Shown in pieces: positions 40,989-64,000 of a stretch of DNA of 64,000 bases. Source of the DNA: a virus (Duplodnaviria; Heunggongvirae; Uroviricota; Caudoviricetes); the IMG/VR virus record IMGVR_UViG_2877251553_000001, positions 1-64,000 of that record; one strand, given 5' to 3'. A model generated the notes under the pieces. It saw only the letters and a list, made by a program, of their open reading frames with translations. It was not told the origin of the DNA and did not search any database. Within the stretch, counting starts at the first letter, position 1. Each line of letters opens with the position of its first letter. A program made the position numbers and the translations under genes.

Positions 40989-42317
40989 TAGACTGGCCCC
41001 TGAATCTCCAGACAACCAGTATCACTTAAATAAGTGATAGTCTTAATACTAGTTTTTAGACTAGTCATTGGAGTACAGATGATTGATGTCTTAGGGCCGG
41101 AGAAACGCAGACGGCGTACCACACAGGAAAAGATCGCAATTGTTCAGCAGAGCTTTGAACCGGGGATGACGGTCTCCCTAGTTGCCCGGCAACATGGTGT
41201 AGCAGCCAGCCAGTTATTTCTCTGGCGTAAGCAATACCAGGAAGGAAGTCTTACTGCTGTGGCCGCCGGAGAACAGGTTGTTCCTGCCTCTGAACTTGCT
41301 GCCGCCATGAAGCAGATTAAAGAACTCCAGCGCCTGCTCGGCAAGAAAACGATGGAAAATGAACTCCTCAAAGAAGCCGTTGAATATGGACGGGCAAAAA
41401 AGTGGATAGCGCACGCGCCCTTATTGCCCGGGGATGGGAGTAAGCTTAGTCAGCCGTTGTCTCCGGATGTCGCGTGCGCAGTTGCACGTCATTCTCAGAC
41501 GAACCGATGACTGGATGGATGGCCGCCGCAGTCGTCACACTGATGATACGGATGTGCTTCTCCGTATACACCATGTTATCGGAGAGCTGCCCACGTATGG
41601 TTATCGTCGGGTATGGGCGCTGCTTCGCAGACAGGCAGAACTTGATGGTATGCCTGCGATCAATGCCAAACGTGTTTACCGGATCATGCGCCAGAATGCG
41701 CTGTTGCTTGAGCGAAAACCTGCTGTACCGCCATCGAAACGGGCACATACAGGCAGAGTGGCCGTGAAAGAAAGCAATCAGCGATGGTGCTCTGACGGGT
41801 TCGAGTTCTGCTGTGATAACGGAGAGAGACTGCGTGTCACGTTCGCGCTGGACTGCTGTGATCGTGAGGCACTGCACTGGGCGGTGACTACCGGCGGCTT
41901 CAACAGTGAAACAGTACAGGACGTCATGCTGGGAGCGGTGGAACGCCGCTTCGGCAACGATCTTCCGTCGTCTCCAGTGGAGTGGCTGACGGATAATGGT
42001 TCATGCTACCGGGCTAATGAAACACGCCAGTTCGCCCGGATGTTGGGACTTGAACCGAAGAACACGGCGGTGCGGAGTCCGGAGAGTAACGGAATAGCAG
42101 AGAGCTTCGTGAAAACGATAAAGCGTGACTACATCAGTATCATGCCCAAACCAGACGGGTTAACGGCAGCAAAGAACCTTGCAGAGGCGTTCGAGCATTA
42201 TAACGAATGGCATCCGCATAGTGCGCTGGGTTATCGCTCGCCACGGGAATATCTGCGGCAGCGGGCTTGTAATGGGTTAAGTGATAACAGATGTCTGGAA
42301 ATATAGGGGCAAATCCA
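40989..42317 (+). mobile_element. IS2 insertion sequence (1329 bp here) with 5-bp target duplication CAGGT
   Basis: Ends TAGACTGGCCCC... and ...GGGGCAAATCCA; CAGGT at 40984-40988 and 42318-42322. Confidence 0.9.
41079..42306 (+). CDS. insCD: IS2 transposase InsC/InsD (orfA/orfB)
   Basis: [26 protein letters not shown]... (InsC) and DDE transposase InsD recognised from memory; one missing G in a G-run near 41430 removes the InsC stop. Confidence 0.85.
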
Positions 42318-42469
42318 CAGGTGCACACGCACATACTGTCGGTATTGGTGCTCATACGCACTCCGTTGCGATTGGTTCACATGGACATACCATCACCGTT
42401 AACGCTGCTGGTAACGCGGAAAACACCGTCAAAAACATCGCATTTAACTATATTGTGAGGCTTGCATAA
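42318..42469 (+). pseudogene. stf: side tail fibre 3' remnant
   Basis: ...[50 protein letters not shown] continues the GAHTHS repeats after IS2. Confidence 0.7.
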
Positions 42470-43051
42470 TGGCATTCAGAATGAGTGAACAACCACGGAC
42501 CATAAAAATTTATAATCTGCTGGCCGGAACTAATGAATTTATTGGTGAAGGTGACGCATATATTCCGCCTCATACAGGTCTGCCAGCAAACAGTACCGAT
42601 ATTGCACCGCCAGATATTCCGGCAGGCTTCGTGGCTGTTTTCAACAGTGATGAGGCATCGTGGCATCTCGTTGAAGATCATCGGGGTAAAACGGTTTATG
42701 ACGTGGCTTCCGGCGACGCGTTATTTATTTCTGAACTCGGTCCGTTACCGGAAAATGCCACTTGGTTATCCCGGAAGGGAGTTTCAGAAGTGGAACGGCA
42801 CAGCCTGGGTGAAAGATGCAGAAGCAGAAAAACTGTTCCGGATCCGGGAGGCGGAAGAAACAAAAAACAGCCTGATGCAGGTAGCCAGTGAGCATATTGC
42901 GCCACTTCAGGATGCTGTAGATCTGGAAATCGCAACGGAGGAAGAAACCTCATTGCTGGAAGCCTGGAAAAAGTATCGGGTGTTGCTGAACCGTGTTGAT
43001 ACATCAACTGCACCGGATATTGAGTGGCCAGAAGAACCAGACACCGTGTAA
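42469..43051 (+). CDS. tfa: tail fibre assembly protein Tfa; -1 net frameshift near 42770-42790
   Basis: N-terminus [31 protein letters not shown]... and C-terminus ...[24 protein letters not shown] match remembered lambda Tfa. Confidence 0.8.
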
Positions 43052-43059
43052 GCAAAAAA

Positions 43060-43101
43060 GAAAAACCGCAGACACGACGTATGCATGACGTGCTGCGGTT
43101 T
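43060..43101. terminator. long hairpin between convergent tfa and the GIY-YIG gene; also copy 1 of a ~30-nt repeated motif
   Basis: AAACCGCAG...CTGCGGTTT inverted repeat enclosing ACACGACGTATGCATGACGTG. Confidence 0.45.
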
Positions 43102-43112
43102 ATGCTTATCAC

Positions 43113-43936
<824 letters not shown>

Positions 43937-44297
43937 TCATTGCAAGGGCTCACAACCAGTAGTGTTGAGAAAACCATCGGAGAAATGAGGCTAAGCCTTT
44001 GAATTTACATAGTACAAAAAAGATACTTTTCCTCATAATGTGAGCTAATTTTATGTTTCGTTTGATGATTGGACCGGTCTCGAAAACCGTAGACACATAG
44101 TATGCGTTAATTTATGAACAAACTACTTGTCTGCTGTTTTTCTGTCATTAGTCGTATATAGAATGATTCTCTATGCCTAACAAAGCATCACCAGTGCTAG
44201 ATTACGTTGTAGTCACTGTTTAAATATCCAGATAAAACATTTCCTTCTGGGTTGAATGAGTGATAAAGTTTCACCCATTAGACCCCTTGGAGGAATT

Positions 44298-45730
44298 ATG
44301 TCTGAATTTGAAGTGTTGGCACAGCATCTGCTGAAGGAAGCCGAGGCGGAAGAAAAGCTGCGACAGGAAAATGATAAAAAGCTTATCGAGAAAGTGCTGG
44401 AAATCTATGATCAGAAGTATGTGGCTGAATTACTGAGAAAAGTCGGAAAAAATGAGTGGAGCCGTGAAACCATTAACCGCTGGATTAATGGCAAGTGTTT
44501 ACCAAAATCGTTGACTTCAGTAGAAGAGTCTCTTCTGCGTAAGATGCTACCAGAACCACCTGCAAACCATCCGGAATATGCTTTCCGCTTCATTGACTTA
44601 TTTGCTGGAATTGGAGGGATACGGAAAGGTTTTGAGGCCATTGGAGGCCAGTGTGTTTTTACCAGTGAATGGAATAAAGATGCTGTGCGTACATACAAGG
44701 CCAACTGGTTTAACGATGAACAGGTGCATAAATTCAATCTCGATATTCGGGAAGTCACGCTGAGTGATAAAACCGATGTATTGGAAACGGATGCTTATGC
44801 ATATATTGATGAGCATGTGCCGGATCATGATGTGCTTCTTGCGGGGTTCCCGTGCCAGCCATTTAGCCTTGCTGGTGTTAGTAAGAAAAACTCACTTGGT
44901 CGTGCGCATGGTTTTGAATGTGAAGCACAAGGAACACTTTTTTTTGACGTGGCACGTATTATACGAGCAAAAAAACCGGCAATTTTTGTGCTGGAAAATG
45001 TCAAAAATCTGAAGAGCCATGATAAGGGTAAAACTTTCAAAGTCATTATGGAGACCCTTGACGAGCTGGGCTACGAAGTTGCCGATGCTGCAGAAATGGG
45101 AAAAAACGATCCAAAGATTATCGATGGGAAGCATTTTTTGCCTCAGCATCGTGAACGCATTGTTCTGGTCGGATTTAGACGAGATCTGAATATTCACAAG
45201 GGGTTTACCTTGCGTGATATCAGTCGTTTTTATCCGGAACACCGCCCATCATTTGGTGAATTGCTGGAGCCTGTAGTCGACAGTAAATATATACTTACGC
45301 CAAAACTATGGGAGTACCTTTATAACTACGCCAAAAAGCATGCAGCCAAGGGGAATGGTTTTGGCTTTGGGTTGGTCAATCCTGAGAATAAGGAAAGCAT
45401 TGCACGCACACTTTCTGCCAGATATCACAAAGACGGATCAGAAATTCTTATTGATCGTGGTTGGGATATGGCAACGGGAGAGGCTGACTTTATGAATGAG
45501 AGTAATCAGGCTCGTCGACCACGCAGGCTGACTCCCGAGAGTGCGCACGCCTTATGGGATTTGAAAAACCTGGAGGGAAACCATTCCGTATTCCGGTTTC
45601 AGATACTCAGTCATATCGGCAGTTCGGTAACTCAGTTGTGGTGCCAGTATTTGAAGCTGTTGCCAGACTTCTGGAACCCTATATCCTCAAAGCTGTTTCT
45701 GCTGATGCTGGTAAGACTGGGCAGCCTTGA
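44298..45730 (+). CDS. DNA cytosine-5 methyltransferase (Dcm / M.EcoRII-like, CCWGG-type); -1 frameshift at a C-run near 45533
   Basis: Strong resemblance to remembered E. coli Dcm ([14 protein letters not shown]...GFPCQPFS...ENVKNL...[15 protein letters not shown]); restoring one C gives a Dcm-like C-terminus. Confidence 0.85.
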
Positions 45731-45764
45731 GAACATCTCCCGGCCTTTTAAGCCGGGAGTCAGC

Positions 45765-46979
45765 CTATGATAGTTCAGCGTAAAGCTCTATCAGCTCAGT
45801 AATGAATGCTCCGAGCGTTATTAATTCTTCTCTAACTGCTTCTGGGTATTTTTTATGTAAAGTTGATGGTACAACGAGTCTGACACCCGCATCTTTCATT
45901 TCTCGGTATTGTGCTGAAGAAACACCTTCTTGCAGTGTAAATAAATGTACCTGATGGATTTTATCTGCTTCATTCAGTATCTGACGCCAGCGATCTTTGC
46001 AGGTGGTCTTTACTGCCAGCATACGTAAGTTTTCTACAGGAAATTCAACGTTATGATATGCCTCTGCTGAAGGAAACAGGAAATCTGGTTTTTTATTACC
46101 TTCAGTAACTGCCTGAGTGGAGAAATGCCGTAGTCCGTGCTCGATAAAAAGCTTCTCTAGGTGAAGTTCAAGTGATTTGCCTGCCCTTGATTTACGTCGA
46201 TTACTGACAGAGTTGGCTAATGCAATAAACTCATCTACAGAATCGAATCCTTTCTTAATAATATCAAGAACATGTAATTCCTCGACGAGTAGAAAAATAT
46301 CATACTCGACACGCCGACGGTCAATCAGTTGCTCATCTGGATCCTTGGAGTTTTTAGCATAATGGCCAGCAGCATATTGAATAATTTCGTTTCCAGAAGG
46401 AAAACGCTTCTTCCAGTCTTCAGGAATAACATATTTATGATTTACTGGAGTTTGCTGAAGAGACAATCCGCCCAAAATTTGTCCGGCAGGGCCGGAAATT
46501 AGGGTTCCAGGTATGATTTCGCCAATAGCAGACTCGATGATATCCTCTTCATCGGGATTGACGCAGACCCATATATCTACCTCGGAACAGTCAGTGTTCT
46601 GTTCGTTTAACCTGAAAGCAAGAATTGTGAGGGCTCCTGTATTTTCAGGGTTCTGTAATGGACTTCCTCTCCCCCAGCGCGTAATTCTTTTTTCGTTTCG
46701 GGTCTTACCAAAATAACGGTTGTTGTAATAAATTGCGCGTGCTTGGGTATCAGGGCAATCATGGGATGATACATGCGCAGTAAGGAAGACTGAAGGGTTC
46801 AGTTCGCGAGTATGATTGATAGATGGAAAAAGCTTTTCAACGATATTTGAGGGGATATAAAGTCCGACCTGATGGCCACCTGTTGCGCCTGTGTCGTTTG
46901 CAGAAAGGCGTTTGATGTAGATAAAGTAATTCCCGCTTGCGATATCAAGCAGCCAGTTATGAAAAACCGACATATACAT
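45765..46979 (-). CDS. type II restriction endonuclease, EcoRII-like (CCWGG)
   Basis: 404-aa ORF convergent with the Dcm-like gene; N-terminus (M)[25 protein letters not shown] matches remembered R.EcoRII. Confidence 0.8.
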
Positions 46980-47572
46980 CCCTTTGTTAACATACAGTCA
47001 GGGTTAACATTTTTCCATAGTTATAGATAAGCGGCTAGGAACTTAAGGGAAAAACAAAAAGCCCGCATAAGCGGGCTTTTGTGTCACTCGAGAGCCGCGG
47101 CTCCTTTGCGTATCCTTTTTTGTCTCCTCACCGTCTGGTCGGTGTCCTGCTGAGACTGCTAACTTCCTGTTTTTGTTGGTGTTGCCCTTACACCGTCCAA
47201 TCATGATTGGTGGAGCTGGCGGGAGTTGAAACCGTAGCCACGTCGTATGCAAGAACGTGCTACGACTGGCTGGTGAACTTCCGATAGTGCGAGTATTGAA
47301 TGATTTCCAACTGTTATCGATTTTGCGTATTTTTTGCATGAGAGGATTTTTACCTCCTCCCACCGATCCTCCATGGCTTTACGCCAGTGTCTCTAGGACT
47401 GCTATGTGCCAAAAGCAGAACTTGCTTACATTGTGCTATGTTAATTTGTTGGGAGCAGGTCACAAAGTCCAGCCAGGACGAAAATAAATAATTGCCATAC
47501 ATTTAGTGTTGATTATTTCGGGATTGTTCATCTATTCTGATTGTATCAGCGAGCAGGCCGGAGTCACTCTTC

Positions 47573-47797
47573 GTGGAACATCCCATACTTCAGAAAACAA
47601 TCGTTCTCTTTATTCTTGCCCTATGGGTAATTGATCCATTCAGGACAAAGAGAAGAAAGCATACTGAATCCACCATTGAAGAAGCCGATGCCAGAGAACG
47701 TCATAAATGGCGATATCTCAGATGGGGAGTACGAACAATACAAATTGCAGCGACAGTATATATGTTTGCTATGCTGATTCAGTTTTTACTGAAGTAG
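47573..47797 (+). CDS. hypothetical small membrane protein
   Basis: 74-aa ORF with two hydrophobic segments in an otherwise unassigned region; weak. Confidence 0.25.
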   Translation: MEHPILQKTIVLFILALWVIDPFRTKRRKHTESTIEEADARERHKWRYLRWGVRTIQIAATVYMFAMLIQFLLK

Positions 47798-48641
47798 ACG
47801 GCTCAGGCAGGTACGACCGGACGGAATTGGCAGCCAATTCAGCGGAGGCCGGACGGGGTTAAACGTCCCCTCTGTGCCAGTGACCTGCTCCCCGTTGATT
47901 CACACGGAAGACTGTTAGAAATGTGCAATTTTTGCTCACAGCAGACTTTAAGAGTTGATTGTGTGTTGCACTGTGAGATCAAATCAAAACCAATATATTC
48001 AGGCATCTTCCCACAGCGCCCCCATTCAACAGGCAATTGCTCCTTATCAAATCCCTCAAACCAGTAAACACTACTTTTTGCCCAACAATAGGCACTTCTC
48101 CCCAACCCTAATGAAACAATGCGCGACTCCAGTCCGGCTTGAGACGACCATGCCGTTTAAGGCGCACACCATTACAAGCAGTTGCTCATATTGAGGGAAA
48201 GTTAATAAAGAAACTTAACGGCATTTCCTCTTTTGCGCACGTTTCAATTGCCTTGATATCCAGTCTTGGTTACGTTTGCGAATTTTTTGTTTCATTGGCT
48301 ACTGTTCTGATTCGACTCACTTATTAATCAATGATCTTACTGTATTCCAACGCCATGCTTTGTACAGGAATGTCCGCTTTTCGCTCATAACAGACATTAA
48401 CTACAGTTATGGTAGAAGGTATGCATGCTGGGTGGGGAAAGTATGAAGGAAAAGAAGACTGCTGCGCCGTTTGTCGTCACATTTATCTTCATTGGCTATG
48501 CAAGTCGTAATACAAGGTGGGACAAAACTGAGACACATAAGGCCTCGCAATGACTTGCAAGGCTTTACATGTTTTGATGTGGTGGGACGTGTGAGCGCAG
48601 TGTTGATGGGGTAATGCTTTGAATTAGAAGCGGATTCTTAT

Positions 48642-48687
48642 AATTCGTAATGCGAAGGTCGTAGGTTCGACTCCTATTATCGGCACC
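48642..48687 (+). repeat. 46-bp direct repeat of the thrW 3' end (prophage attR / island attL core)
   Basis: Identical to 1399-1444 (ATTCGTAATGCGAAGGTCGTAGGTTCGACTCCTATTATCGGCACCA). Confidence 0.85.
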
Positions 48688-48853
48688 ATTCAAACATCTC
48701 CCCAAGTCTACTAAAGTCTTTCAAAACCCCTTATAATCCGCGTATTAAAGCCCCGTTCGTCTTTTGACGCCTACTAAAGTCCCTCAAAATCTACGGTCAG
48801 ATGGGGGTACTTATGGGGGTATTTGCTGTTCGGTTTAGTGGAGGTACCCCCAA

Positions 48854-50068
48854 GTGAAACTCAATGCCCGTCAAATAGACACAGCCAAGCCAAAAGAGAA
48901 GGCTTACAAGCTGGCCGATGGTGGCGGTTTGTATCTCTTGGTAAAACCTAATGGAGGTAAATACTGGCGACTTAAATATCGTGTAGCTGGTAAAGAGAAG
49001 CTATTGGCACTAGGTGTGTATCCTGAGGTTACTCTAGCCGATGCTCGGGCAAAACGTGAAGATGCGAAAAGAGGTATCGCTGGTGGTATCGATCCGATGG
49101 AAGCGAAACGAGAGGAAAAGATTGCCCGGGAAACGCAGTTAAACAACACCTTCAAAGATATTGCCCTTGAGTGGCACAGCAGCAAATTAAAAAAATGGTC
49201 TGCTGGTTATGCTTCAGACATCCTCGAAGCCTTCAACAAAGATGTGTTCCCTTACATTGGCAAAAAACCAATCGCCGAAATCAAACCACTTGAACTTCTG
49301 AATGTGCTGCGGCGCATCGAGGGGCGCGGTGCTACAGAAAAAGCCAAAAAAGTGAGGCAGCGGTGCGGGGAAGTTTTCCGCTATGCAATAGTCACTGGTC
49401 GCGCAGAGTATAACCCTGCACCAGACCTTACTAGCGCGATGCAAGGCCATGAATCTAATCATTACCCTTTCCTTACAGCTAAAGAATTACCTGATTTTTT
49501 CAAGGCATTGTCCAGTTACTCAGGAAGCGCATTGGTTGTTATGGCGGCTCGTCTACTGATTATCATCGGCTTGCGGACTGGCGAACTACGTGGCGCATTA
49601 TGGGATGAAATTGATTTCAACAAGGCTATCTGGGAGATACCCGCTTCACGTATGAAAATGCGGCGGCCTCATATTGTGCCATTGTCTGATCAGGCTCTTT
49701 CGCTTATTGGGAAGATTAGAGAAATAACAGGCAATTACCCTCTTATGTTTCCCGGGCGCAATGATCCAAGGAAAACAATGAGTGAGGCCAGCATAAACCA
49801 AGTGTTTAAGCGCATTGGCTACGCTGGACGTGTAACTGGTCATGGGTTCCGGCACACTATGAGCACGATTTTGCATGAGCAGGGCTATAACACCGCGTGG
49901 ATAGAAACGCAGCTCGCTCACGTTGATAAGAACTCAATTCGTGGCACATACAACCATGCGCAATATCTGGATGGAAGGCGGGAGATGCTTCAATGGTATG
50001 CCGACTATATGGATGCGCTGGAGAAGGAGGAGAACGTTGTTCATGGTTCGTTTGGGAAACGAGCTTAA
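48854..50068 (+). CDS. P4-family integrase
   Basis: 404-aa tyrosine recombinase with P4-int-like N-terminus (MKLNARQIDTAKPKEKAYKLADGGGLYLLVKPNGGKYWRLKY); GTG start; just downstream of the tRNA repeat. Confidence 0.9.
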   Translation: MKLNARQIDTAKPKEKAYKLADGGGLYLLVKPNGGKYWRLKYRVAGKEKLLALGVYPEVTLADARAKREDAKRGIAGGIDPMEAKREEKIARETQLNNTFKDIALEWHSSKLKKWSAGYASDILEAFNKDVFPYIGKKPIAEIKPLELLNVLRRIEGRGATEKAKKVRQRCGEVFRYAIVTGRAEYNPAPDLTSAMQGHESNHYPFLTAKELPDFFKALSSYSGSALVVMAARLLIIIGLRTGELRGALWDEIDFNKAIWEIPASRMKMRRPHIVPLSDQALSLIGKIREITGNYPLMFPGRNDPRKTMSEASINQVFKRIGYAGRVTGHGFRHTMSTILHEQGYNTAWIETQLAHVDKNSIRGTYNHAQYLDGRREMLQWYADYMDALEKEENVVHGSFGKRA

Positions 50069-50131
50069 CTGTATGAATAGACCGTGTTAAGCAATGGTAG
50101 TAGACTTATGTAGACGAACAAAGAATAGGCT

Positions 50132-50482
50132 ATGTCTAGGCTGATCCCGAAAACCCGTACACCCCTACGGGCTGGCATAGCCGTCAGAATTAGGGGCGCG
50201 GGGTGGCGTATGGTGAGAGCCAAAAAACAAGATTTAGCATGGTTTGATATTAGTAATTATGAATTTTTAAATGATTTAACCTTGCCGGACTTGATTCAAG
50301 AATTAGAGTGGCGCGATTTTTTATTGCGTCATGCAAAAGATGACACTGCTATATTCAAAGAAGAGTACGATATAAAATATGAAAGGATTTTTTCGGGCGA
50401 TCCTAACCTAACCATTCTCAATGAAGAAGAGGAAGAGGTCGAAGAATTTATTCGCAAAGTAAATGATGAAGCCCATCATTAA
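50132..50482 (+). CDS. hypothetical protein (116 aa)
   Basis: AT-rich ORF in the int-alpA interval. Confidence 0.4.
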   Translation: MSRLIPKTRTPLRAGIAVRIRGAGWRMVRAKKQDLAWFDISNYEFLNDLTLPDLIQELEWRDFLLRHAKDDTAIFKEEYDIKYERIFSGDPNLTILNEEEEEVEEFIRKVNDEAHH

Positions 50483-50555
50483 GAAATGAGTACGATGATC
50501 TACCCTCATTATCTTCAGCTATGGGGTTAGTCCAGTAACATTTTCAGAGCTGGCC

Positions 50556-51088
50556 ATGTACTCTTTCTCATCGATAGATCAAGGCTTTTTTAAAAGAGAC
50601 GAAGAGGATTGCTACCTCAAGGCAAACGCTATGCTTGCGAGTGTTACTGGAAACCTAAGTAATTGTTCCCCTAACATCATACTCGTTTCTATAGATTTAG
50701 ATGACGCCACTGATGACGAAATTATTACCAGCCTGACTCACCTTCTACCTCTATGGCGAAAAGAGTTAAAAGTACCAGAGAGAGAGCATGTCGCTCAGAA
50801 AAGGATTGGATTAAAGACCCTTCAGAAGTTGATATCTAATAGAGTGATACCTATTGTTGATCTGCTGATTTGGGTGAGAAGTCAGGTAAGGAAGTGAGCA
50901 ATCCGATGATTTCTGCCTTGGTTTTTAGTGATGATCCGAAAGATACGCAGGCTATTAAGGAATCAATAAAGCCTTTTGCACTTGAATCTATAAGCGAGAG
51001 ATACACCCGCTTGCTTCAGCTTTATGTAAACAAAGACAGAGAAATGAGCTTGATAAAAATATCTGATTTAATGAGTAGAGATTTATAG
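50556..51088 (+). CDS. hypothetical protein(s): two overlapping ORFs (113 and 72 aa), possibly one gene with a frameshift
   Basis: ORFs 50556-50897 and 50870-51088 in adjacent frames; AT-rich. Confidence 0.3.
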
Positions 51089-51285
51089 CAAGCAAAATCC
51101 TACGTAAACGTTTTAAGTAAATTTCGCGATTTCCGCTTTGAATACGCTACTGTGTATTTCAAAGCGGATAATCTTCTCAAAAAAATATTTTATTTTTATC
51201 CGCTATCACCCATTCACCGGTTTGTTTAATCTCCTTTCTGTCTACTGATGTCCATTAAAGAAGATGACAGAATATAGGAGTAAAC

Positions 51286-51483
51286 ATGTCTCAATCATTT
51301 ATTCGTCTTTCTGAGGTTCAACGCCGTACTGGTTACAGCAAAGTGTGGATTTATCGGCTCATCAAAGAACAGCGATTCCCTCAATCTGTAAAGATTGGAA
51401 GCCGATCAATTGCGTTTATTGAAAGTGAAATTGAAGAATGGATTAATCAGCGCATCGCTGAGTCGCGTGGCGAGGTAGCGTAA
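51286..51483 (+). CDS. alpA: AlpA-family transcriptional regulator
   Basis: 65-aa protein MSQSFIRLSEVQRRTGYSKVWIYRLIKEQRFPQSVKIG, typical of P4/CP4-57 AlpA. Confidence 0.7.
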   Translation: MSQSFIRLSEVQRRTGYSKVWIYRLIKEQRFPQSVKIGSRSIAFIESEIEEWINQRIAESRGEVA

Positions 51484-51821
51484 TGAATAAGAAAAACCGC
51501 CCATTACAGGCGGCTAATTCAGATATTCGCGTATCTGATGTTACGCCCCTTACAAAATCCCTTCAAGCACCAAAGCGCACACCGAAAAAGCATCGTGCCA
51601 GAGTCTATATGCTGCGTACTGGTATAGAGGGATGGACAGAAAATGACATTCTTCGCTACTGCCGTCTGTCTTCTGGTCGTAACTATGCAACAGAGTTAGA
51701 ACGCCAGCTTGGAATCACTCTGGAACGTATCGACGAAAAGAATCCTGATGGTATCGGAACACACCTTCGCTACCGTTTCTCCTGCCGTGGTGATGTTCTG
51801 AAAGTGATCACTCATATGTAA
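51483..51821 (+). CDS. hypothetical protein
   Basis: 112-aa ORF overlapping alpA stop. Confidence 0.4.
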   Translation: MNKKNRPLQAANSDIRVSDVTPLTKSLQAPKRTPKKHRARVYMLRTGIEGWTENDILRYCRLSSGRNYATELERQLGITLERIDEKNPDGIGTHLRYRFSCRGDVLKVITHM

Positions 51822-51947
51822 GGCAGTATGACTTTCCGTGAGACAGATGCTGGCCAACGTGGGATATTTAACGCGGGTTAACATCGTTGTCAGAGCCGCA
51901 TGGGTGAGCTGTTGCTACACCCCGGTATTTCCACCACGGAGGCCAGC

Positions 51948-53074
51948 ATGAACAACAATAACACATTGTACGTCGGGTTAGATGTTCACAAAGAATCGAT
52001 TACTGTCGCTTATGCTATCAATTCAGAACCTGTTGAACTGATGGGTAAAATTGGCACATCACCTACTGATATTCAGAATCTTTGTAAACGTCTCAGGTCA
52101 AAGTCATCGCAGGTCAGTATCGTTTATGAAGCGGGGCCCTGTGGTTATGGACTTTATCGTCGGCTGGTGAAATCCGGTTTTGACTGCATGGTCTGCGCCC
52201 CTCACTTATCCCGAAAAAACCGGGGGAGCGGGTTAAAACCGATCGCCGTGATGCCATCAGACTTGTGCGTTCACTGCGTGCAGGAGATCTTTCTGCTGTC
52301 TACGTACCCGGCATTGAAGATGAGGCATTCCGGGATTTGGCCCGGGCATGGGCATCTGCCCGCGATGATTTACGGCATGCAAGGCAACGTCTGAAATCGT
52401 TTCTTCTGGTTCATGGGGTCCATTATGTCGGGCGAGCAGATTGGGGCCCTGCACACCGACGCTGGCTCAGCAAATACTCATTCGAAAGTCCCTGGCGACA
52501 ATTAGCTTTTGACGAACACCGTCGTACAATAGAAGACCGGCAGGCACAATGTGAACGGCTGGAATCCGCCCTGAAGGAGGCCGTTACCGAATGGAGGCTG
52601 TATCCGGTAGTAGAGGCGCTGCAAGCCATGCGAGGGATTCAGTTTATTACTGCGGTTGGATTAATTTCTGAACTGGGTGATCTGACCCGTTTTGAACATC
52701 CACGACAACTGATGTCATGGTTTGGTATCACGCCATCAGAATATTCATCGGGTGGAAGCAGACATCAGGGCAGCATTACCAAAGCCGGAAACAGCTATGC
52801 CAGAAAGCTATTGGTCGAGGCAGCGTGGAGTTACCGTCATCCGGCACGCATCAGTCCGGCAATACAAAAAAGGCAGGAAAATTTACCCCGCCCCGTCATT
52901 GACAGAGCATGGGATGCTCAACTCAGGCTCTGTAAGAGGTATCGAAAACTTCAGGCCAAAGGAAAGAATGTCAATATTACAATTGTTGCTGTTGCACGTG
53001 AGCTGGCGGGTTTTATCTGGGATATGGGCCGAATAGCAATGTCTGTCGCACAACAACCACAATGTCACAAATAA
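51948..53074 (+). CDS. IS110-family transposase; -1 frameshift in A/G runs near 52215-52235
   Basis: N-terminus MNNNNTLYVGLDVHKESI (DEDD RuvC-like) and C-terminal IS110-type domain; two ORF-track pieces. Confidence 0.75.
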
Positions 53075-53366
53075 AAAATGAGAATAACCAGTTCCCTGAA
53101 GGCGACGTAGCCCGGTACAAGAGTAACCCACGTTAGCGCTTGGCGACGGCGGAACAAAGCTGATTCGCGACGTAAGAAAGTGGCAGGCTCATATGACGGA
53201 CCTCTGTAATGCGGTATCCAACCCGCGAATATCAGCGTGATTCACCGTCGGATTTACTGCTACGTCGCCCTCAGGGAATTAAACCTAAAAAGAAAATCGT
53301 CAAAATTAGAGATTCCGGTTTGACACGGAAAGTCATATCAGCGTCAACGGAGCACCGTATTGACGC

Positions 53367-54958
53367 TTATTTATTGGTGAGTGCTACGTTCCATGGCAGG
53401 AGTTCGTCAACACGGTTGGAAGGCCATTCCGGCAGTACGCTCAGGATATAGCGCAGATACGCTTCCGGATCGATACCGTTCAGTCGGCAGGTGCCGATCA
53501 GCCCGTACAGTAGCGCACCACGCTCTCCACCGTGATCGCTGCCGAAGAACATAAAGTTTTTCTTTCCGAGACAGACTGCACGAAGCGCTCTTTCCGCGGC
53601 ATTATTATCCGCCTCAGCCAGACCATCATCACTGAAGTTGCACAACGCAACCCAGTGCTTCCTGATATACCGGAACGCATCTCTCAGACGGCATTTTTTC
53701 GATAACGTCTGTTCTTTCTCCTGCATCAGCTTATACAGGGAAGTCAGTAGCGGTTTACTCTGCATTTGCCTGACCGCCAGGCGTTCAGACACCGGCAACC
53801 CGCGTATTTCGTGCTCGATGGCGTACAGCTCACCGATTAGTTTCAGGGCTTCTTCCGCTGTCGCGCTTTTGGTACTGATATATACATCGTGGACTTTGCG
53901 CCGCGCATGAGCCCAGCATCCTGCTTCCGTCAACGCGCCGCCTTCTCGTTCGGCACTGAACAGCCGATCGTAACCATTAAACGCATCTGCCTGCAGGATA
54001 CCCCGGAAGGGACTAAGGTGCTGCTCCGGATGTTTACCCTGATGGTCCGGTGAGTAGGCGAACCAGACCGCCGGAGGCTCTGGCGAACCGGCATTCCTGT
54101 CATCCCGGACATACGTCCAGATATATCCTGTTTTCGCCTTCTTCCTGCCCGGTGCCAGCACTTTTACTGGTGTGTCATCAGTGTGAACTTTGCGGCTGTT
54201 CATCACATAACGGTACAGAGCATCATTCAGCGGCGTCATTAACTGGCAGCACGCGTCAACCCAGTTGGAGAGTAATGCACGGCTCAGTTCGACACCCTGA
54301 CGGGCAAAAATTTCACTCTGACGATACAGTGGCAGGTGTTCGCAGTATTTTCCCGTTAACACGCGGGCAAGTAACCCCGGGCCCGCGATACCACGCTCTA
54401 TCGGACGGGATGGTGCCGGTGCTTCAACGATGCAGTCACATTTTGTACAGGCTTTTTTTACCCGTTCTGTGCGGATCACTTTCAGAGCGCTGCTCACCAG
54501 TTCCAGTTGTTCTGCGCTGACTTCCCCAGATAATCCAGCTCACCGCCACACTCCGGGCAACAGCTTTCTTCTGGCTCCAGGCGATTTATTTCGCGGGGCA
54601 GATGCTCCGGTAACGGGCGACGATGACGAGACTGTCGCAACTGGCGGGGAACCTGCGGATCGTCTTCCCGCCCACTGTAACGATCACTGTCCTGTTCGCG
54701 TTGTTTCAGCAGGGCCTCAGCCTGTTCAACTTCACGACGCAGTTTTTCAGAACGGGTACCGAACAGCATCCGGCGCAGTTTTTCTATCTGAGCCCGCAGA
54801 TGTTCTATTTCCCGTTCATCTTCTTCGATCTTTTCTTCGGCGCGGGCCAGTGCAGAGCGCAGGAAGGCCTCCGTCTCTTCAACCAGACTCAGTTGCTGGT
54901 CTTTCTGACGGAGCTGGCATTCCAGTTCTGCAATGCGAATGAGGTATTTTTGATTCAT
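53367..54958 (-). CDS. IS66-family transposase TnpC; frameshifted
   Basis: N-terminal leucine-zipper/zinc-finger (CPECGGEL) piece 54494-54958 and DDE piece 53367-54497. Confidence 0.8.
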
Positions 54959-54988
54959 GGCCGTTTTTATAATCCGGCCATGACATTT

Positions 54989-55348
54989 TTACAACATTGT
55001 CAGTGCGTTAAGGCGGGATGTTTTTGGCTGACGCCAGTCCAGCTTATCGAGGAGCATTGCCAGTTGCGAGCGGGTAATGGATACCTTGCCGTCACGCACA
55101 GCAGGCCAGATAAACTGGCCTTCCTCCAGGCGTCTGGTGAACAGGCACAGACCATCAGCATCAGCCCACAGGATTTTAATCATGTCACCCCGTCGGCCAC
55201 GGAAGATGAACAGGTGACCGGAGAAGGGATTATCATTCAGCACATGCTGTACCTGTTCACCCAGCCCGTTGAAAGACTTACGCATATCGGTTATCCCAGC
55301 AACGAGCCAGATGCGGGTGCCTGACGGGAGTGAGATCATCGTCCCCAC
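54989..55348 (-). CDS. IS66-family accessory protein TnpB (Orf2)
   Basis: 119-aa ORF typical of IS66 orf2. Confidence 0.75.
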   Translation of the reverse strand: MGTMISLPSGTRIWLVAGITDMRKSFNGLGEQVQHVLNDNPFSGHLFIFRGRRGDMIKILWADADGLCLFTRRLEEGQFIWPAVRDGKVSITRSQLAMLLDKLDWRQPKTSRLNALTML

Positions 55349-55767
55349 CCGGTCAGTTCACGGATCAACACTGTGAGCAGCTCTGGTGAAGGATTTTCCA
55401 GCGTCATGTTACCGTGACGGAACTCCACCTTGCAGGAGCTGGCACTAACTGTAGTCTGAGTAGATAAAGACGGAGTAAGAGCAGCCACCGGTTCTTTCGG
55501 CTCATCCGGCGTTATCTCCACAGGTAATAATTCAACGCCAGTGTCAGAAGAGGTTGTTACCGGAAGACGCCGCGATATGCGCCCTTCGTTCTGCCAGAGC
55601 CTGAGCCATTTGAACAGCAGGTTATCATTGATATCGTGTTCCCGGGCAATACGGGCAACAGAGGCTCCTGGTTGTGAAGCCAGTTTAACCATTTGAAGTT
55701 TAAACTCATTTGAAAATGATCTGCGGGTTCTGCAGATAATGCTTTCTGTTCCATAACAGGTGTCCAC
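55336..55767 (-). CDS. IS66-family accessory protein TnpA (Orf1)
   Basis: 143-aa ORF upstream of TnpB; IS66-type terminal repeat GTAAGCGTAAACTGACCGCCG (revcomp) near 55815-55840. Confidence 0.7.
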   Translation of the reverse strand: MDTCYGTESIICRTRRSFSNEFKLQMVKLASQPGASVARIAREHDINDNLLFKWLRLWQNEGRISRRLPVTTSSDTGVELLPVEITPDEPKEPVAALTPSLSTQTTVSASSCKVEFRHGNMTLENPSPELLTVLIRELTGWGR

Positions 55768-55848
55768 TAGTTGAAAAGGTGGGCACCTACGTTACCAATA
55801 CAGGCTTAATGGCTACATACGGCGGTCAGTTTACGCTTACACTCATAT

Positions 55849-57164
<1,316 letters not shown>

Positions 57165-57357
57165 TGATTCTGTAACTCATATTTGCCCAACAATTCGTCC
57201 GCTTCCTAAATAGCTTCTGGTACGCCATTGAGCAGTGACATAACCGCGCCAATCATTAACTTGTCTCTGTTGCTGGGGCTGGCCCCTTCAAGCCAGAACC
57301 CTAAAACAGTCTGAACCTGTTCGATGCGACATTGCGCTTCAATGAGCTGGATGTTGG

Positions 57358-57621
57358 TCATTTCGCACTCTCCACATCGATTAAACCGATATCTATCAGG
57401 GAGGTAACTTTTTGTAGCCAGCTATTGATTACTGTCGCCTGTTCCCCTCCCACCGAGGGAACAATCTCATTCATCACATGAACCAGACCTGTGCGCGCTC
57501 TGGTAAGCCGTTCAGTCGCGCAATCTGCGGGAGTGAATGTGTCTGGATATGGCTCTTCACGCCCCAGCAATGATTCAATTTCCAGCTCACACGGATGACG
57601 ATAAATTAAGTTGATATTCAT
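57358..57621 (-). CDS. hypothetical prophage-remnant protein
   Basis: 87-aa ORF in a minus-strand gene string. Confidence 0.3.
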   Translation of the reverse strand: MNINLIYRHPCELEIESLLGREEPYPDTFTPADCATERLTRARTGLVHVMNEIVPSVGGEQATVINSWLQKVTSLIDIGLIDVESAK

Positions 57622-57869
57622 TTTTCACCCCCAAGAATTACCAGCTCGGCACGGGCATCGTTAACCAAAGATGAGCACGCTTTAATCGCATCCACGACAT
57701 CAGTAGCGTCCATTTCTTCAGCCGAAAGACTGACAGCAACCAGGACAGCCGCTGCTTGCTCGATTAATTGAAGTGCGGACGTAAGGCGAGGGGTATTAAT
57801 TGAGTTATTCATTGGTTGCCCCCGTTTTTCCTGGCATTTCGCCACCTTCCAGCAGGAAATGAACGTCAC
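57618..57869 (-). CDS. hypothetical prophage-remnant protein
   Basis: 83-aa ORF, overlapping stop/start with neighbour. Confidence 0.3.
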   Translation of the reverse strand: MTFISCWKVAKCQEKRGQPMNNSINTPRLTSALQLIEQAAAVLVAVSLSAEEMDATDVVDAIKACSSLVNDARAELVILGGEK

Positions 57870-58872
57870 GAACGGCGAGATCCAATATCGCGAGTAACGC
57901 CTTCAGTCTTTCGTCTCGTGAGGGAGAGTTGCTCACCAGAATGTCGTTAATCACTTCTGTCAGTGTGATGATCTGGCTTGTGCGTTCGAGGGGATCCATA
58001 TGCACATCGTAGGTTTTAATCATGTGCCACCTCCATGCGGATACGACCAGCAAAAAAGCAGATGTGATCGCGCACCAGAGAACGGCGAGCATCGCGTTCA
58101 GACTCGGCAGCAATATGATGAATTTTGGCGGTAATTGTCGGGCAATCGCGGCGAACTGCGGCGATAATCCAGATAAATTGCGGTTTTTGGGTAGGGGTAG
58201 TAGCCAGCATGTGGCAGCCTCCATTCGATAGCATGTAACGCTACCACCGGAAACGCCAATTTCGCTGGTGGTAGCCCAGACAGGGTTGGCGTAACCGGCT
58301 CGAATGGATACCGGCGCTTCCGAAGAAGCCCCTGCCTGAGCCACCATTGATTGACAAAGGCGCTGGATTATACACCAACGCCCAAAAAATGGGTGAGTCA
58401 GACCTACGACATAAAAAAAGACGCTCGGCGCGTCATATGTCGCCATTCGATTTACCAGGACGCCAATCCCGGCACCCGTTTTATGAGGTGCCTTATAACC
58501 ATAAACCGTGTTGCCGCATAACGGCAAGCTCTTTTTTATGGACTCCGAAAACTCACTATTGGAAGAACCAGAAGCACAGTACATCGCGCTCATTTCGTTA
58601 ACGTCACGCGCGTGGACGAATGTTTTTGTGGAGTCACTACACGAGCTGAAGACATCATCTACGACCAGAAATTTTCTGGCGCAGCCGCTGACCTTCTCAA
58701 TGCTAATATCATCGCCCGAGATTTCTGGTATGGTTAAGGCATCCGTTCCGACCACAAGCAAATGATAAACTTTGCTTGTATCTGCTGTATTAATGCCTGA
58801 CTTTGCCGTCATATTTCTGGATTTTGGCGACATGCCAGCCAGTGAAAATGTCTTCTTCTGGACGGGTATCAT
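57805..58872 (-). CDS. hypothetical protein, paralog of 7649-8485 (probably frameshifted)
   Basis: Shares core AGAGIGVL...[17 protein letters not shown] with the prophage early gene. Confidence 0.4.
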
Positions 58873-59040
58873 TGGTTAACCTCCGCGAACTCCTTCATGA
58901 AACGCGCCAGCGGTTGTACGCATGGCGATTGATACCCGTCGCGATAAAACGTCACTCGGTTGTGAGACACGCTTTCGACAGTAACGAGTGCTCCGTGGGC
59001 ATCTTTGTAGCGTTTTTGTGGTTGTGGTGTTCCTGTTGGC

Positions 59041-59874
59041 TTAGACATTGAGCGCCTCCAGACGCTTGGCGAGCCAGCGTTGCGACAGGCGGGTGAGTTC
59101 TCCTTTGCGCTGCTCATATTCCATGCCCATATCAATTAACGTGATATTGGTGCTTTCGAGATATGAGAGGTGCTCAAGCTGTTCTGCGTTCATATGGTCG
59201 CGAGGTTCGCCAGAATAGCCATTTATCCGCGCCCACTGCTTAGCAGTTAGCCCACCAAGAACGATACGAGAAATCATATTGCTCTCGTTTGTGTAGTGGT
59301 GTTGCTGCGTCGTTTTCCCCATCTCGGCACGGGCCATATTCAGCGCATCGCACATTGGCTTAAAGTTGTTTGCGGCACTGATACGGGCTTTTAGCTGGCG
59401 ACGATAGCGTGCGGCGATTTCAGGCACGCTACGCTGTAATTCTTCCTCGCACTGGATGAAATAACGGCGGATAGCGTGACCCTGATCATTGCGTTCGATC
59501 ATTGCCAGTTCTTTCGCCATTCCGACACTTAACAGATAGTCTTTGCCGGGTCTGCCAGACTGCTTAATCTTGCTGTAAGCCGCGCCATTCGGGCTTTTCC
59601 CCAAATTTGGGGAAATTGTTTTATGGACTGAGTAATCGTGCCCAATGGTGAAGTCATATTCAGAGATGCGATCAGTGATCCATGTAGAGAAGTCTTTTCC
59701 CACGCCCAACGCTTTGTGTAACGCTTTTGCGCTAACAATATTGGTTTCACGCCCACCGATATGACCAGGAATAACCGGGACAATTGCGGCAAATTCATTA
59801 CCGTTAATTGTGCTCAGAGAGGCGTTCAGATGAGGGGCGGCCTCAGAAATTAATCTGCTTTTTTCGATGTTCAT
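59041..59874 (-). CDS. phage antirepressor-like protein (AntA/KilAC-type)
   Basis: 277-aa ORF; N-terminal region resembles AntA-type antirepressor domain. Confidence 0.45.
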   Translation of the reverse strand: MNIEKSRLISEAAPHLNASLSTINGNEFAAIVPVIPGHIGGRETNIVSAKALHKALGVGKDFSTWITDRISEYDFTIGHDYSVHKTISPNLGKSPNGAAYSKIKQSGRPGKDYLLSVGMAKELAMIERNDQGHAIRRYFIQCEEELQRSVPEIAARYRRQLKARISAANNFKPMCDALNMARAEMGKTTQQHHYTNESNMISRIVLGGLTAKQWARINGYSGEPRDHMNAEQLEHLSYLESTNITLIDMGMEYEQRKGELTRLSQRWLAKRLEALNV

Positions 59875-59997
59875 TTTCAGTCTCCGTTAAGCGGCGTTAA
59901 ACGCGTCCGGGTAGAGTTTCAGAATGTCGGCAATTTCCTGCTGAGAAAGTCCGTTGTGATCATTTATGTTCGCAAGATGGTTAATATGAAGTGGTCA

Positions 59998-62324
<2,327 letters not shown>

Positions 62325-62548
62325 TGACGCTCATCACGCAGTTGTTTGACCCATCCTGTCATTGTGGAAAGGCCAACATCCATAGCTTTGGCGGCATCTG
62401 CCACCGTGTATTTCTGGTCAACAACCAGTTGAGCGGATTCGCGTTTAAACTCTGCGCTAAAATTTCTTTTTTTCATTGGAGCACCTGTGTTGTTCTGAGG
62501 TGAGCATATCACCTCTGTTCAGGTGGCCAAATTCAGTGTGCCACTTCA

Positions 62549-63110
62549 GAACCAGACGTTCGCTCCTACAGCACCAAATCAGGTCTGGGTGGCGGACCTG
62601 ACGTATGTTGCCACACAGGAGGGATGGTTGTACCTCGCTGGCATCAAAGATGTTTATACGTGCGAAATTGTCGGCTACGCCATGGGAGAGCGCATGACAA
62701 AAGAGCTGACAGGTAAAGCCCTGTTTATGGCGCTCAGGAGCCAGCGCCCACCTGCCGGGCTAATCCACCACTCTGATCGAGGTTCACAGTACTGCGCATA
62801 CGATTACCGGGTCATACAGGAGCAGTCTGGTCTGAAAACATCAATGTCGCGTAAAGGTAACTGTTACGACAACGCTCCGATGGAAAGCTTCTGGGGAACG
62901 CTGAAAAATGAGAGCCTGAGCCACTATCGTTTTAATAACCGGGATGAAGCCATCTCAGTAATACGGGAATACATTGAGATTTTCTACAATCGTCAGCGTC
63001 GTCACTCTCGTCTGGGGAATATCTCCCGGCAGCCTTCAGGGAAAAATATCATCAGATGGCTGCTTAAAAAAAGAACAAATGGTAGTGTCCGCTATTGCCA
63101 GTACACCTCA
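62549..63110 (+). mobile_element. IS3-family element fragment (3' part of orfB), truncated by IS911
   Basis: DDE transposase C-terminal half (HHSDRGSQY...YDNAPMESFWGTLKNE); family member not identified; right boundary approximate. Confidence 0.55.
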
Positions 63111-63582
63111 CCGGGTGGCATGGATAAACCCGGAAGAGAGTAAATCAAACCGCGCAATTGGCGTTGCGCTGAATGATACTGCATGTCGCGTATTGAAAAA
63201 ACAAATCGGGAATCATCACCGTTGGGTATTTGTGTATAAGGAAAGCTGTACCAAACCAGACGGAACGAAAGCGCCAACAGTCAGGAAGATGCGGTATGAC
63301 GCAAACACAGCCTGGAAAGCGGCGCTGAGACGAGCAGGTATTGATGATTTCAGATTTCACGACTTGAGACACACCTGGGCAAGTTGGCTGGTTCAAGCCG
63401 GAGTCCCGTTATCAGTGTTACAGGAAATGGGAGGCTGGGAGTCTATCGAAATGGTTCGTCGATATGCTCACCTCGCACCTAATCACCTTACCGAACACGC
63501 ACGGCAAATAGACTCGATTCTGAACCCATCGGTCCCAAATTTGTCCCAGTCAAGAAATAAGGAACGTACTAATGATGTGTAA
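63110..63582 (+). pseudogene. integrase 3' fragment (about 98 percent identical to the C-terminus of int at 1459-2622), truncated by IS insertion
   Basis: ...[17 protein letters not shown]...[10 protein letters not shown]...VRRYAHL... with two substitutions versus the prophage int; followed by TTTAAATCAATAAG-type att junction in inverted orientation. Confidence 0.8.
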
Positions 63583-63809
63583 CTTATTGATTTAAATGGA
63601 TAATAGGAACAATACACATAGGCGATAAGCTTTGTTTTTGTTGCCTTTTTTATTGTTCATTTTTTATAGATACCCCCAAAAGTACCCCCATATCTTTTTC
63701 CGCCCCTGAAATTTGGTTGTTATTCATACAGCATATCAGGCGGTAACGCTCTCCCTTTAACCCACTTATTGTATGATAGTGCTATCCCACAATAAGGAAT
63801 CAGCCAGCC

Positions 63810-64000
63810 ATGAGAATGACCAGTCGCAAAAAAGAGATACTTAGCTACTTTGAACCGGATAACCTCGAATGGGTGACTGGTGAGATTGGTGCGCCGCCGT
63901 TCGATGTGTCGGGTGTGGCCTACCTGCTTCATGGCATGGTGTCGTTCGATAAGCGTCACCAGCTCGAATCAACCCGGCGCACACTGGAAAGCATGGTTGC
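63810..64000 (+). CDS. hypothetical protein, 5' partial (runs off window end)
   Basis: ATG with AAGGA RBS; open to the window end (MRMTSRKKEILSYFEPDNLEWV...). Confidence 0.3.
   Translation, partial: MRMTSRKKEILSYFEPDNLEWVTGEIGAPPFDVSGVAYLLHGMVSFDKRHQLESTRRTLESMV

Follow-up and report, generated by a model that had tools for sequence, protein, structure and literature searches.

Organisation of the locus

The subject of this analysis is a restriction-modification (R-M) gene pair at positions 44298-46979 of a 64,000-nucleotide stretch of DNA (hereafter the window), which corresponds to positions 1 to 64,000 of the IMG/VR virus record IMGVR_UViG_2877251553_000001 (Caudoviricetes) and is 100% identical to its source record, GenBank CP026825.1. 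The region holds a Dcm/M.EcoRII-type C5-methyltransferase gene on the plus strand and the gene of a 404-amino-acid (aa) endonuclease on the minus strand, which face each other. We conclude that the locus is a standard EcoRII-family type IIE R-M system that is carried by a prophage and lies beside a gene for PD-T4-3/CMoRE, a GIY-YIG type IV nuclease. In this sequence the methylase gene contains a frameshift, which is most likely a homopolymer miscall.

The list of open reading frames (ORFs) for 41-50 kb contains two main entries, 44256/44298-45770 on the plus strand and 45765-46979 on the minus strand. An earlier note on this DNA had described them as an EcoRII-like pair in convergent orientation, and the limits that it gave proved to be exact: 44298 is the ATG assigned by RefSeq to the identical E. 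coli gene (L001 7302), and the 404-aa ORF has its first ATG at 46979. Orientation and family assignment likewise hold, the endonuclease being 86.1% identical (348 of 404 residues) to R.EcoRII of an IncN plasmid and the methylase, once repaired, 90.4% identical to the plasmid-encoded M.EcoRII. The description of the system as intact does not apply to the sequence at hand, because the methylase reading frame is broken.

With the methylase gene ending at 45730 (see below), 34 bp separate the two convergent stop codons. This spacer contains an 8-bp inverted repeat, CTCCCGGC/GCCGGGAG, at 45737-45759 (no strand assigned). The hairpin was calculated to fold as RNA with -16 kcal/mol and a z value of -1.9, which is only marginally better than shuffled sequence; it possibly serves as a terminator in both directions.

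Unlike the Dcm-Vsr type of arrangement, this locus has no vsr gene that overlaps the methylase gene or lies next to it, as the earlier note had also stated. The small flanking ORFs gave no Pfam match, and no plus-strand ORF of the size of Vsr follows the methylase gene. A tblastn search of the whole window with an E. coli Vsr sequence likewise gave no significant match (best E = 1.7). The neighbouring GIY-YIG gene was considered as a substitute for Vsr and rejected, since it codes for PD-T4-3/CMoRE, a characterised nuclease that depends on hydroxymethylcytosine (hmC).

The restriction endonuclease

The endonuclease gene (45765-46979, minus strand) is intact and was classified as EcoRII-type (type IIE) on the basis of its Pfam domains and of its match to the structure of R.EcoRII. 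RefSeq starts the same gene at the third codon, which yields a protein of 402 aa, and over these 402 residues the product is identical to WP_000110239.1. Both domains of the family were recognised, EcoRII-N (PF09217, 3.9e-61) at residues 18-165 and EcoRII-C (PF09019, 2.4e-71). The alignment with R.EcoRII (Protein Data Bank (PDB) entry 1NA6) extends from end to end without a gap (E = 3e-243), and the 56 substitutions relative to the IncN enzyme are scattered across both domains.

The active site of R.EcoRII comprises E271, D299, K324 and E337; K328, D329 and R330 contact CC:GG, R262 stabilises the compressed DNA and the flipped base, these four being stated to be invariant in the family, and H36 is a contact of the effector domain (Golovenko et al., PMC2770665). 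All nine residues are conserved in the window enzyme. The earlier note had made its assignment depend on the absence of inactivating mutations in the catalytic residues, and E271, D299, K324 and E337 are indeed unchanged. The protein combines an N-terminal effector-binding domain (B3-like), in which H36 is kept, with a C-terminal PD-(D/E)XK domain, in which the four catalytic residues occupy identical positions and the K328-D329-R330 triad is present together with R262; these are the characteristics of the EcoRII family.

Because of the 86% identity and the conserved contact residues, CCWGG specificity and type IIE behaviour are well-founded predictions for this enzyme. On the same grounds, cleavage would be expected only when a second CCWGG site is bound, and would be blocked by 5-methylcytosine at the inner C.

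The methylase gene and its frameshift

As written, the methylase ORF extends from 44298 to 45770 and encodes 490 aa, which are in the wrong frame past codon 411. The frameshift that the earlier note had flagged at 45533 is present: alignment to E. coli KKa014 places it at 45530-45533 on the plus strand, where the window reads CCC and all relatives read CCCC, a contraction from C4 to C3. The change of frame falls inside motif IX, so that RRLTPRE becomes RRLTPES, and puts motif X (GNSV) out of frame. Because of the latter, the single-ORF product should be inactive, judging from its motifs. Its Pfam matches are DNA_meth_N (1.8e-26) and DNA_methylase (2.1e-60), the second covering profile positions 1-286 of 324, while the rest of that profile (positions 288-320), including motif X, is supplied by a separate 58-aa ORF at 45554-45730. 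A look-up of the 504-aa product that results from the alternative start found none on record.

When one C is restored at 45533, the gene spans 44298-45730 (plus strand) and encodes a 477-aa protein identical to WP_001288444.1. The repaired protein passes the NCBIfam model NF007772 ('DNA cytosine methylase') with 927 bits, compared to a cut-off of 710, and aligns to the Dcm-type structure 3ME5 over residues 28-468. It features DNA_meth_N and motifs I, IV, VI, VIII, IX and X, as is characteristic of C5 methyltransferases of the Dcm/M.EcoRII subfamily; the motif sequences FAGIGG (102), GFPCQ (183), ENV (233), QHRER (283), RRLTPRE (409) and GNSV (444) were located.

The presence of the 58-aa ORF raises the question of whether the gene is functional as it stands, either by slippage of the ribosome or of the RNA polymerase at the C run or by way of two complementing fragments, namely residues 1-411 and the C-terminal 58 aa, which start at an in-frame Met of motif IX. 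The short ORF opens with ATG and contains motif X, and split or fragment-complemented C5 methylases such as M.AquI exist. However, runs of three C are not known as slippery sites, the sole purine-rich stretch (GAGAG) precedes the ATG by about 14 nt and is thus poorly spaced for a ribosome-binding site, and none of the relatives among 263 E. coli records has this arrangement. A miscall is the simplest reading, and we regard a functional slipped or split enzyme as extremely improbable.

The frameshift has to be seen against the background of the whole window. Relative to near-identical E. coli references, about 25 one-base homopolymer contractions were scored in the 64 kb, or about one per 2.5 kb. 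Nearly all of them affect G/C runs, with one in an A run, and every homopolymer-run event in the window is a deletion, without a single expansion. The contractions span 10013-63027, examples being those at 16300, 19795, 22137, 24307, 25380, 34986, 37430, 37605, 37781, 42772, 42776, 43122, 43144, 43816, 45533, 52197, 57030 and 63027. In the 20.8-kb structural region of the prophage (18532-39348), 8 of the 91 G runs with a length of at least 4 are contracted, with the contractions falling in the genes for terminase, portal, capsid, gpJ and lom, and no A or T run is. The same one-base contractions occur in copies of insertion sequences (IS) further downstream, i.e. ISSso6 (52197), IS911 (57030) and IS600 (63027).

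Comparison of 42318-48698 with KKa014 yielded no substitution and eight one-base gaps. Six of these are homopolymer contractions (42772, 42776, 43122, 43144, 43816 and 45533), of which four are in G/C runs, one is in an A run and one is in a C3 run; the other two gaps reflect extra bases of the window right where the alignment ends. The C3 allele at 45533 was found in none of the 263 E. coli records that contain this gene segment. A 42-nt exact pattern of the short allele spanning the site had no match in GTDB species-representative genomes or in JGI metagenome contigs, and the 77-aa out-of-frame tail retrieved nothing from a collection of 5.8 billion proteins. Three further products of the window that contain frameshifts were found in no record other than the source, CP026825.1. 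The look-up of a 502-aa terminase fragment returned only a gene at the end of a contig and was uninformative.

Since the contraction at 45533 is one of about 25 of its kind and is absent from the 263 E. coli records, we consider the methylase frameshift to be most likely an assembly error in the form of a homopolymer miscall. If the observed density is extrapolated to a genome of 4.7 Mb, well over a thousand genes would be frameshifted, which is not credible biology. The pattern looks like the familiar residue of an unpolished long-read consensus, with systematic under-calling of homopolymers in CP026825.1.

Two observations point the other way. Between proA and the early prophage, in the initial 6 kb of the window, none of the 15 G/C runs of at least 4 is contracted, although this is only weakly informative given the rate elsewhere. 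Furthermore, the identical 490-aa frameshifted product is encoded on a 3.9-kb Logan contig (L008) of the run ERR15284554, so the short allele may exist in nature. Contig L008 spans the equivalent of 43362-47188. It does not share the window's contraction at 43816, and has a frameshift of its own at about codon 52 of the endonuclease gene (A5 to A4) as well as a deletion that joins the interior of PD-T4-3 directly to a fragment of gpJ; its cassette is wholly decayed. The first 30 nt of the contig match exactly the gpJ allele of the type found in EC21Z-101, which has CMoRE without the R-M genes, and not that of the window. The contig was therefore rejected as proof of the frameshift by shared descent. 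Because its gpJ allele differs, the frameshift in L008, on the simplest explanation, probably arose independently and in another prophage background, and it therefore has little bearing on that of the window.

A genuine mutation would nevertheless have a distinct consequence. The prophage would then keep a solitary, intact EcoRII-type endonuclease, protected only by the orphan Dcm methylase of the chromosome, which amounts to a hybrid system of a prophage R and a host M. In line with this, the endonuclease ORF is complete and keeps every key residue while the methylase lacks motif X altogether and motif IX in part, and an identical frameshift is present on a contig from an independent read set. 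The prophage contains 99 CCWGG sites compared to 93 expected, so avoidance of the site is not seen. Protection by Dcm against EcoRII is established (PMC3424554, with its reference 16), and according to PMC12707154 Dcm complements a catalytically dead M.EcoRII. On the other hand, changes of the same class (a G/C run minus one base) recur about every 2.5 kb, even in IS copies and in essential phage genes, while not one substitution separates the 6.4 kb around the gene from the reference, and the allele is missing from all 263 E. coli records. The only other carrier, L008, has a different gpJ allele and a dead endonuclease and thus gives no evidence of a common ancestor lacking M and retaining R. 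The host dcm gene lies outside the window. Taken together, a genuine mutation appears unlikely, though clearly less so than a slipped or split enzyme, and a miscall remains the preferred explanation.

The window codes for a second prophage methyltransferase (15187-16239, plus strand), which looks like an orphan and is located just upstream of the lysis genes. It was considered as a protector of CCWGG sites, but it is of the N6/N4 type (PF01555, 2.2e-42), and such a role finds no support.

Prophage setting and the neighbouring PD-T4-3 gene

A repeat search identified two copies of a perfect 48-bp direct repeat on the plus strand, at 1399-1446 (attL) and 48643-48690 (attR). The attL copy is the 3' part of a tRNA-Thr (CGT) gene, which was predicted by ARAGORN at 1369-1444. 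The element between the repeats is a lambdoid prophage integrated in the thrW tRNA-Thr gene, and the R-M pair is at its right end, some 1.7 kb short of attR. Ahead of the cargo, the phage structural genes end with that of tail fibre assembly (42469-43051, plus strand, named after the RefSeq annotation of the KKa014 homologue), which contains the contractions at 42772 and 42776.

The counterpart in KKa014 starts at tRNA-Thr and contains, in this order, integrase, regulatory, lysis, terminase, portal, capsid, tail, gpJ, lom, tail fibre and tail fibre assembly genes, followed by three cargo genes and the attachment site. Since the R-M pair is located between the att repeats and past the tail fibre assembly gene, it is prophage cargo, as had been claimed; with its position between attL and attR and outside the structural and replication modules, it has the features of a moron.

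The claim that the pair forms part of a defence cargo is supported by the gene for PD-T4-3/CMoRE (43121-43891, minus strand), which adjoins the pair on its upstream side. In the window the reading frame of this gene is disrupted by one-base contractions of homopolymers at three positions (43122, 43144 and 43816). The intact copy of KKa014 matches the PADLOC model PD-T4-3 (7.6e-140) and PDB entry 9U75 (5.1e-171). PD-T4-3 is the same as CMoRE, which belongs to the type IV endonucleases and breaks down DNA with 5-hydroxymethylcytosine or glucosyl-hmC (PMC12923530). The R-M system and CMoRE cover complementary targets, i.e. unmodified CCWGG DNA and hmC-substituted T-even DNA, respectively.

In EC21Z-101, the homology to the window ends at 44089 and resumes near 48517, and other cargo fills the slot up to attR. 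Because the homology of this CMoRE-only prophage is interrupted in this way, the R-M pair, together with about 1.6 kb of apparently non-coding DNA, behaves as a replaceable cargo block. Small ORFs scanned in 46980-48642 gave no Pfam match, and in the equivalent part of KKa014 only a short 'capsid protein' remnant is marked by RefSeq.

Comparison with known systems

Among the closest known systems is EcoRII of IncN plasmids (N3 type; structures 1NA6, 3HQF and 3HQG). It has the same two-domain endonuclease of 404 aa, which aligns without gaps and shares the catalytic residues (E271, D299, K324, E337) and the recognition residues (K328, D329, R330, R262, H36), the same 477-aa methylase with an N-terminal regulatory domain, and the same convergent arrangement of the two genes, which are about 33 bp apart. 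The two systems differ in sequence, with amino acid identities of 86% (R) and 90% (M) and a nucleotide identity of about 80%, and in location, the IncN system being found on a conjugative plasmid and the window pair among the cargo of a prophage. A small Mrr-like restriction endonuclease gene is found near the IncN locus, whereas the neighbour in the window is PD-T4-3/CMoRE, i.e. the protein of structures 9U75 and 9U7U, which is not part of the R-M pair.

Dcm-Vsr of E. coli and Shigella (3ME5) belongs to the same methylase family and presumably has the same CCWGG target. Dcm, however, is an orphan methylase with an overlapping vsr gene, whereas the window locus has a cognate endonuclease and no vsr. 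The window methylase is much closer to M.EcoRII (90%) than to Dcm, and its alignment to 3ME5 is visibly more divergent.

Burkholderia phage KL3 (PMC3091744) is another temperate phage with an EcoRII-family endonuclease and a CCWGG methylase as a cargo module. It is P2-like and infects a different host, and its genes are co-directional with Vsr between them, whereas the window pair is convergent and lacks Vsr. For the 414-aa enzyme of KL3 only the EcoRII-C domain was reported (PMC3091744), while the window enzyme possesses both domains.

Distribution

Of 5,426 complete E. coli genomes, 244 (about 4.5%) contain the intact three-gene cassette at a coverage of at least 80%. All 244 are annotated with a methyltransferase, a type II restriction endonuclease and a GIY-YIG protein. 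By rough subtraction of the counts, PD-T4-3 occurs without the R-M genes in another 600 or so E. coli genomes. Plasmid records with the classical plasmid type of EcoRII (80-90% protein identity) number about 2,000. The EcoRII-type pair of the window is thus ordinary and already catalogued, being defence cargo annotated by RefSeq.

The same trio of CMoRE, M and R is present in NZ_CP081794.1 (L005), a circular E. coli record of 43.7 kb that is labelled as a plasmid, carries phage genes and looks like a circular phage genome. There the trio is positioned between the genes for tail fibre assembly and integrase, so that at least two different phage backgrounds carry the cassette. No near match to it was found in a collection of sequenced phage genomes.

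Other features of the window

Between the late regulator region and the N6/N4-type methylase gene, the prophage contains a two-gene insert with a low GC content of 35% (13265-14593, minus strand). One of the products looks membrane-associated (weak match to DUF4064), and neither gene has a PADLOC match. Relative to KKa014, the tail fibre gene is split by an insertion of about 1.33 kb (ca. 40989-42317) with transposase ORFs of the IS3 family (HTH_Tnp_1, followed by rve), which we take to be IS2-like. At the junction the reference coordinates overlap by 5 bp, which is consistent with a target duplication.

A second integrative element (48854-64000) begins right after attR and opens with a P4-type tyrosine integrase gene (48854-50068), which is followed by an IS-rich stretch with the copies of ISSso6, IS911 and IS600. 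Among E. coli sequences, this element is best matched by a plasmid record from a human stool isolate, entitled pINV. Coverage of the region from 45 to 64 kb does not exceed 35% in any complete E. coli genome, which suggests that the host is Shigella-like.

Proposed function and significance

Based on what is known of the family, the methylase would convert the inner C of CCWGG to 5-methylcytosine on the DNA of both host and prophage, and its N-terminal domain probably represses its own promoter. Such autoregulation by the N-terminal domain has been described for M.EcoRII (Som and Friedman, as summarised in PMC12707154). The endonuclease would remain autoinhibited as long as its N-terminal effector domain has not bound a second CCWGG site that is unmethylated, and would then cut incoming unmethylated DNA. 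CMoRE would attack phages that escape R-M by means of hydroxymethylcytosine. In this manner, the whole cassette would protect the lysogen and hence the prophage.

As known defence cargo, the cassette itself has little significance beyond bookkeeping. The main use of the present results is a warning: the apparent pseudogenes of CP026825.1, including those of the methylase and PD-T4-3, should not be taken as biology without recourse to the reads.

The earlier note had also suggested an addiction-like dependence on chromosomal dcm of the host. This is reasonable, and the underlying relationship is already known experimentally. If the frameshift were genuine, a functional endonuclease would be present without its cognate methylase and would be safe only through Dcm, so that retention of dcm by the host would be tied to a prophage gene. 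The 99 CCWGG sites of the prophage and those of the chromosome would then become lethal targets upon loss of dcm. Such a prophage would be a natural example of the known relationship and would show the reverse side of the anti-parasite role that has been proposed for Dcm.

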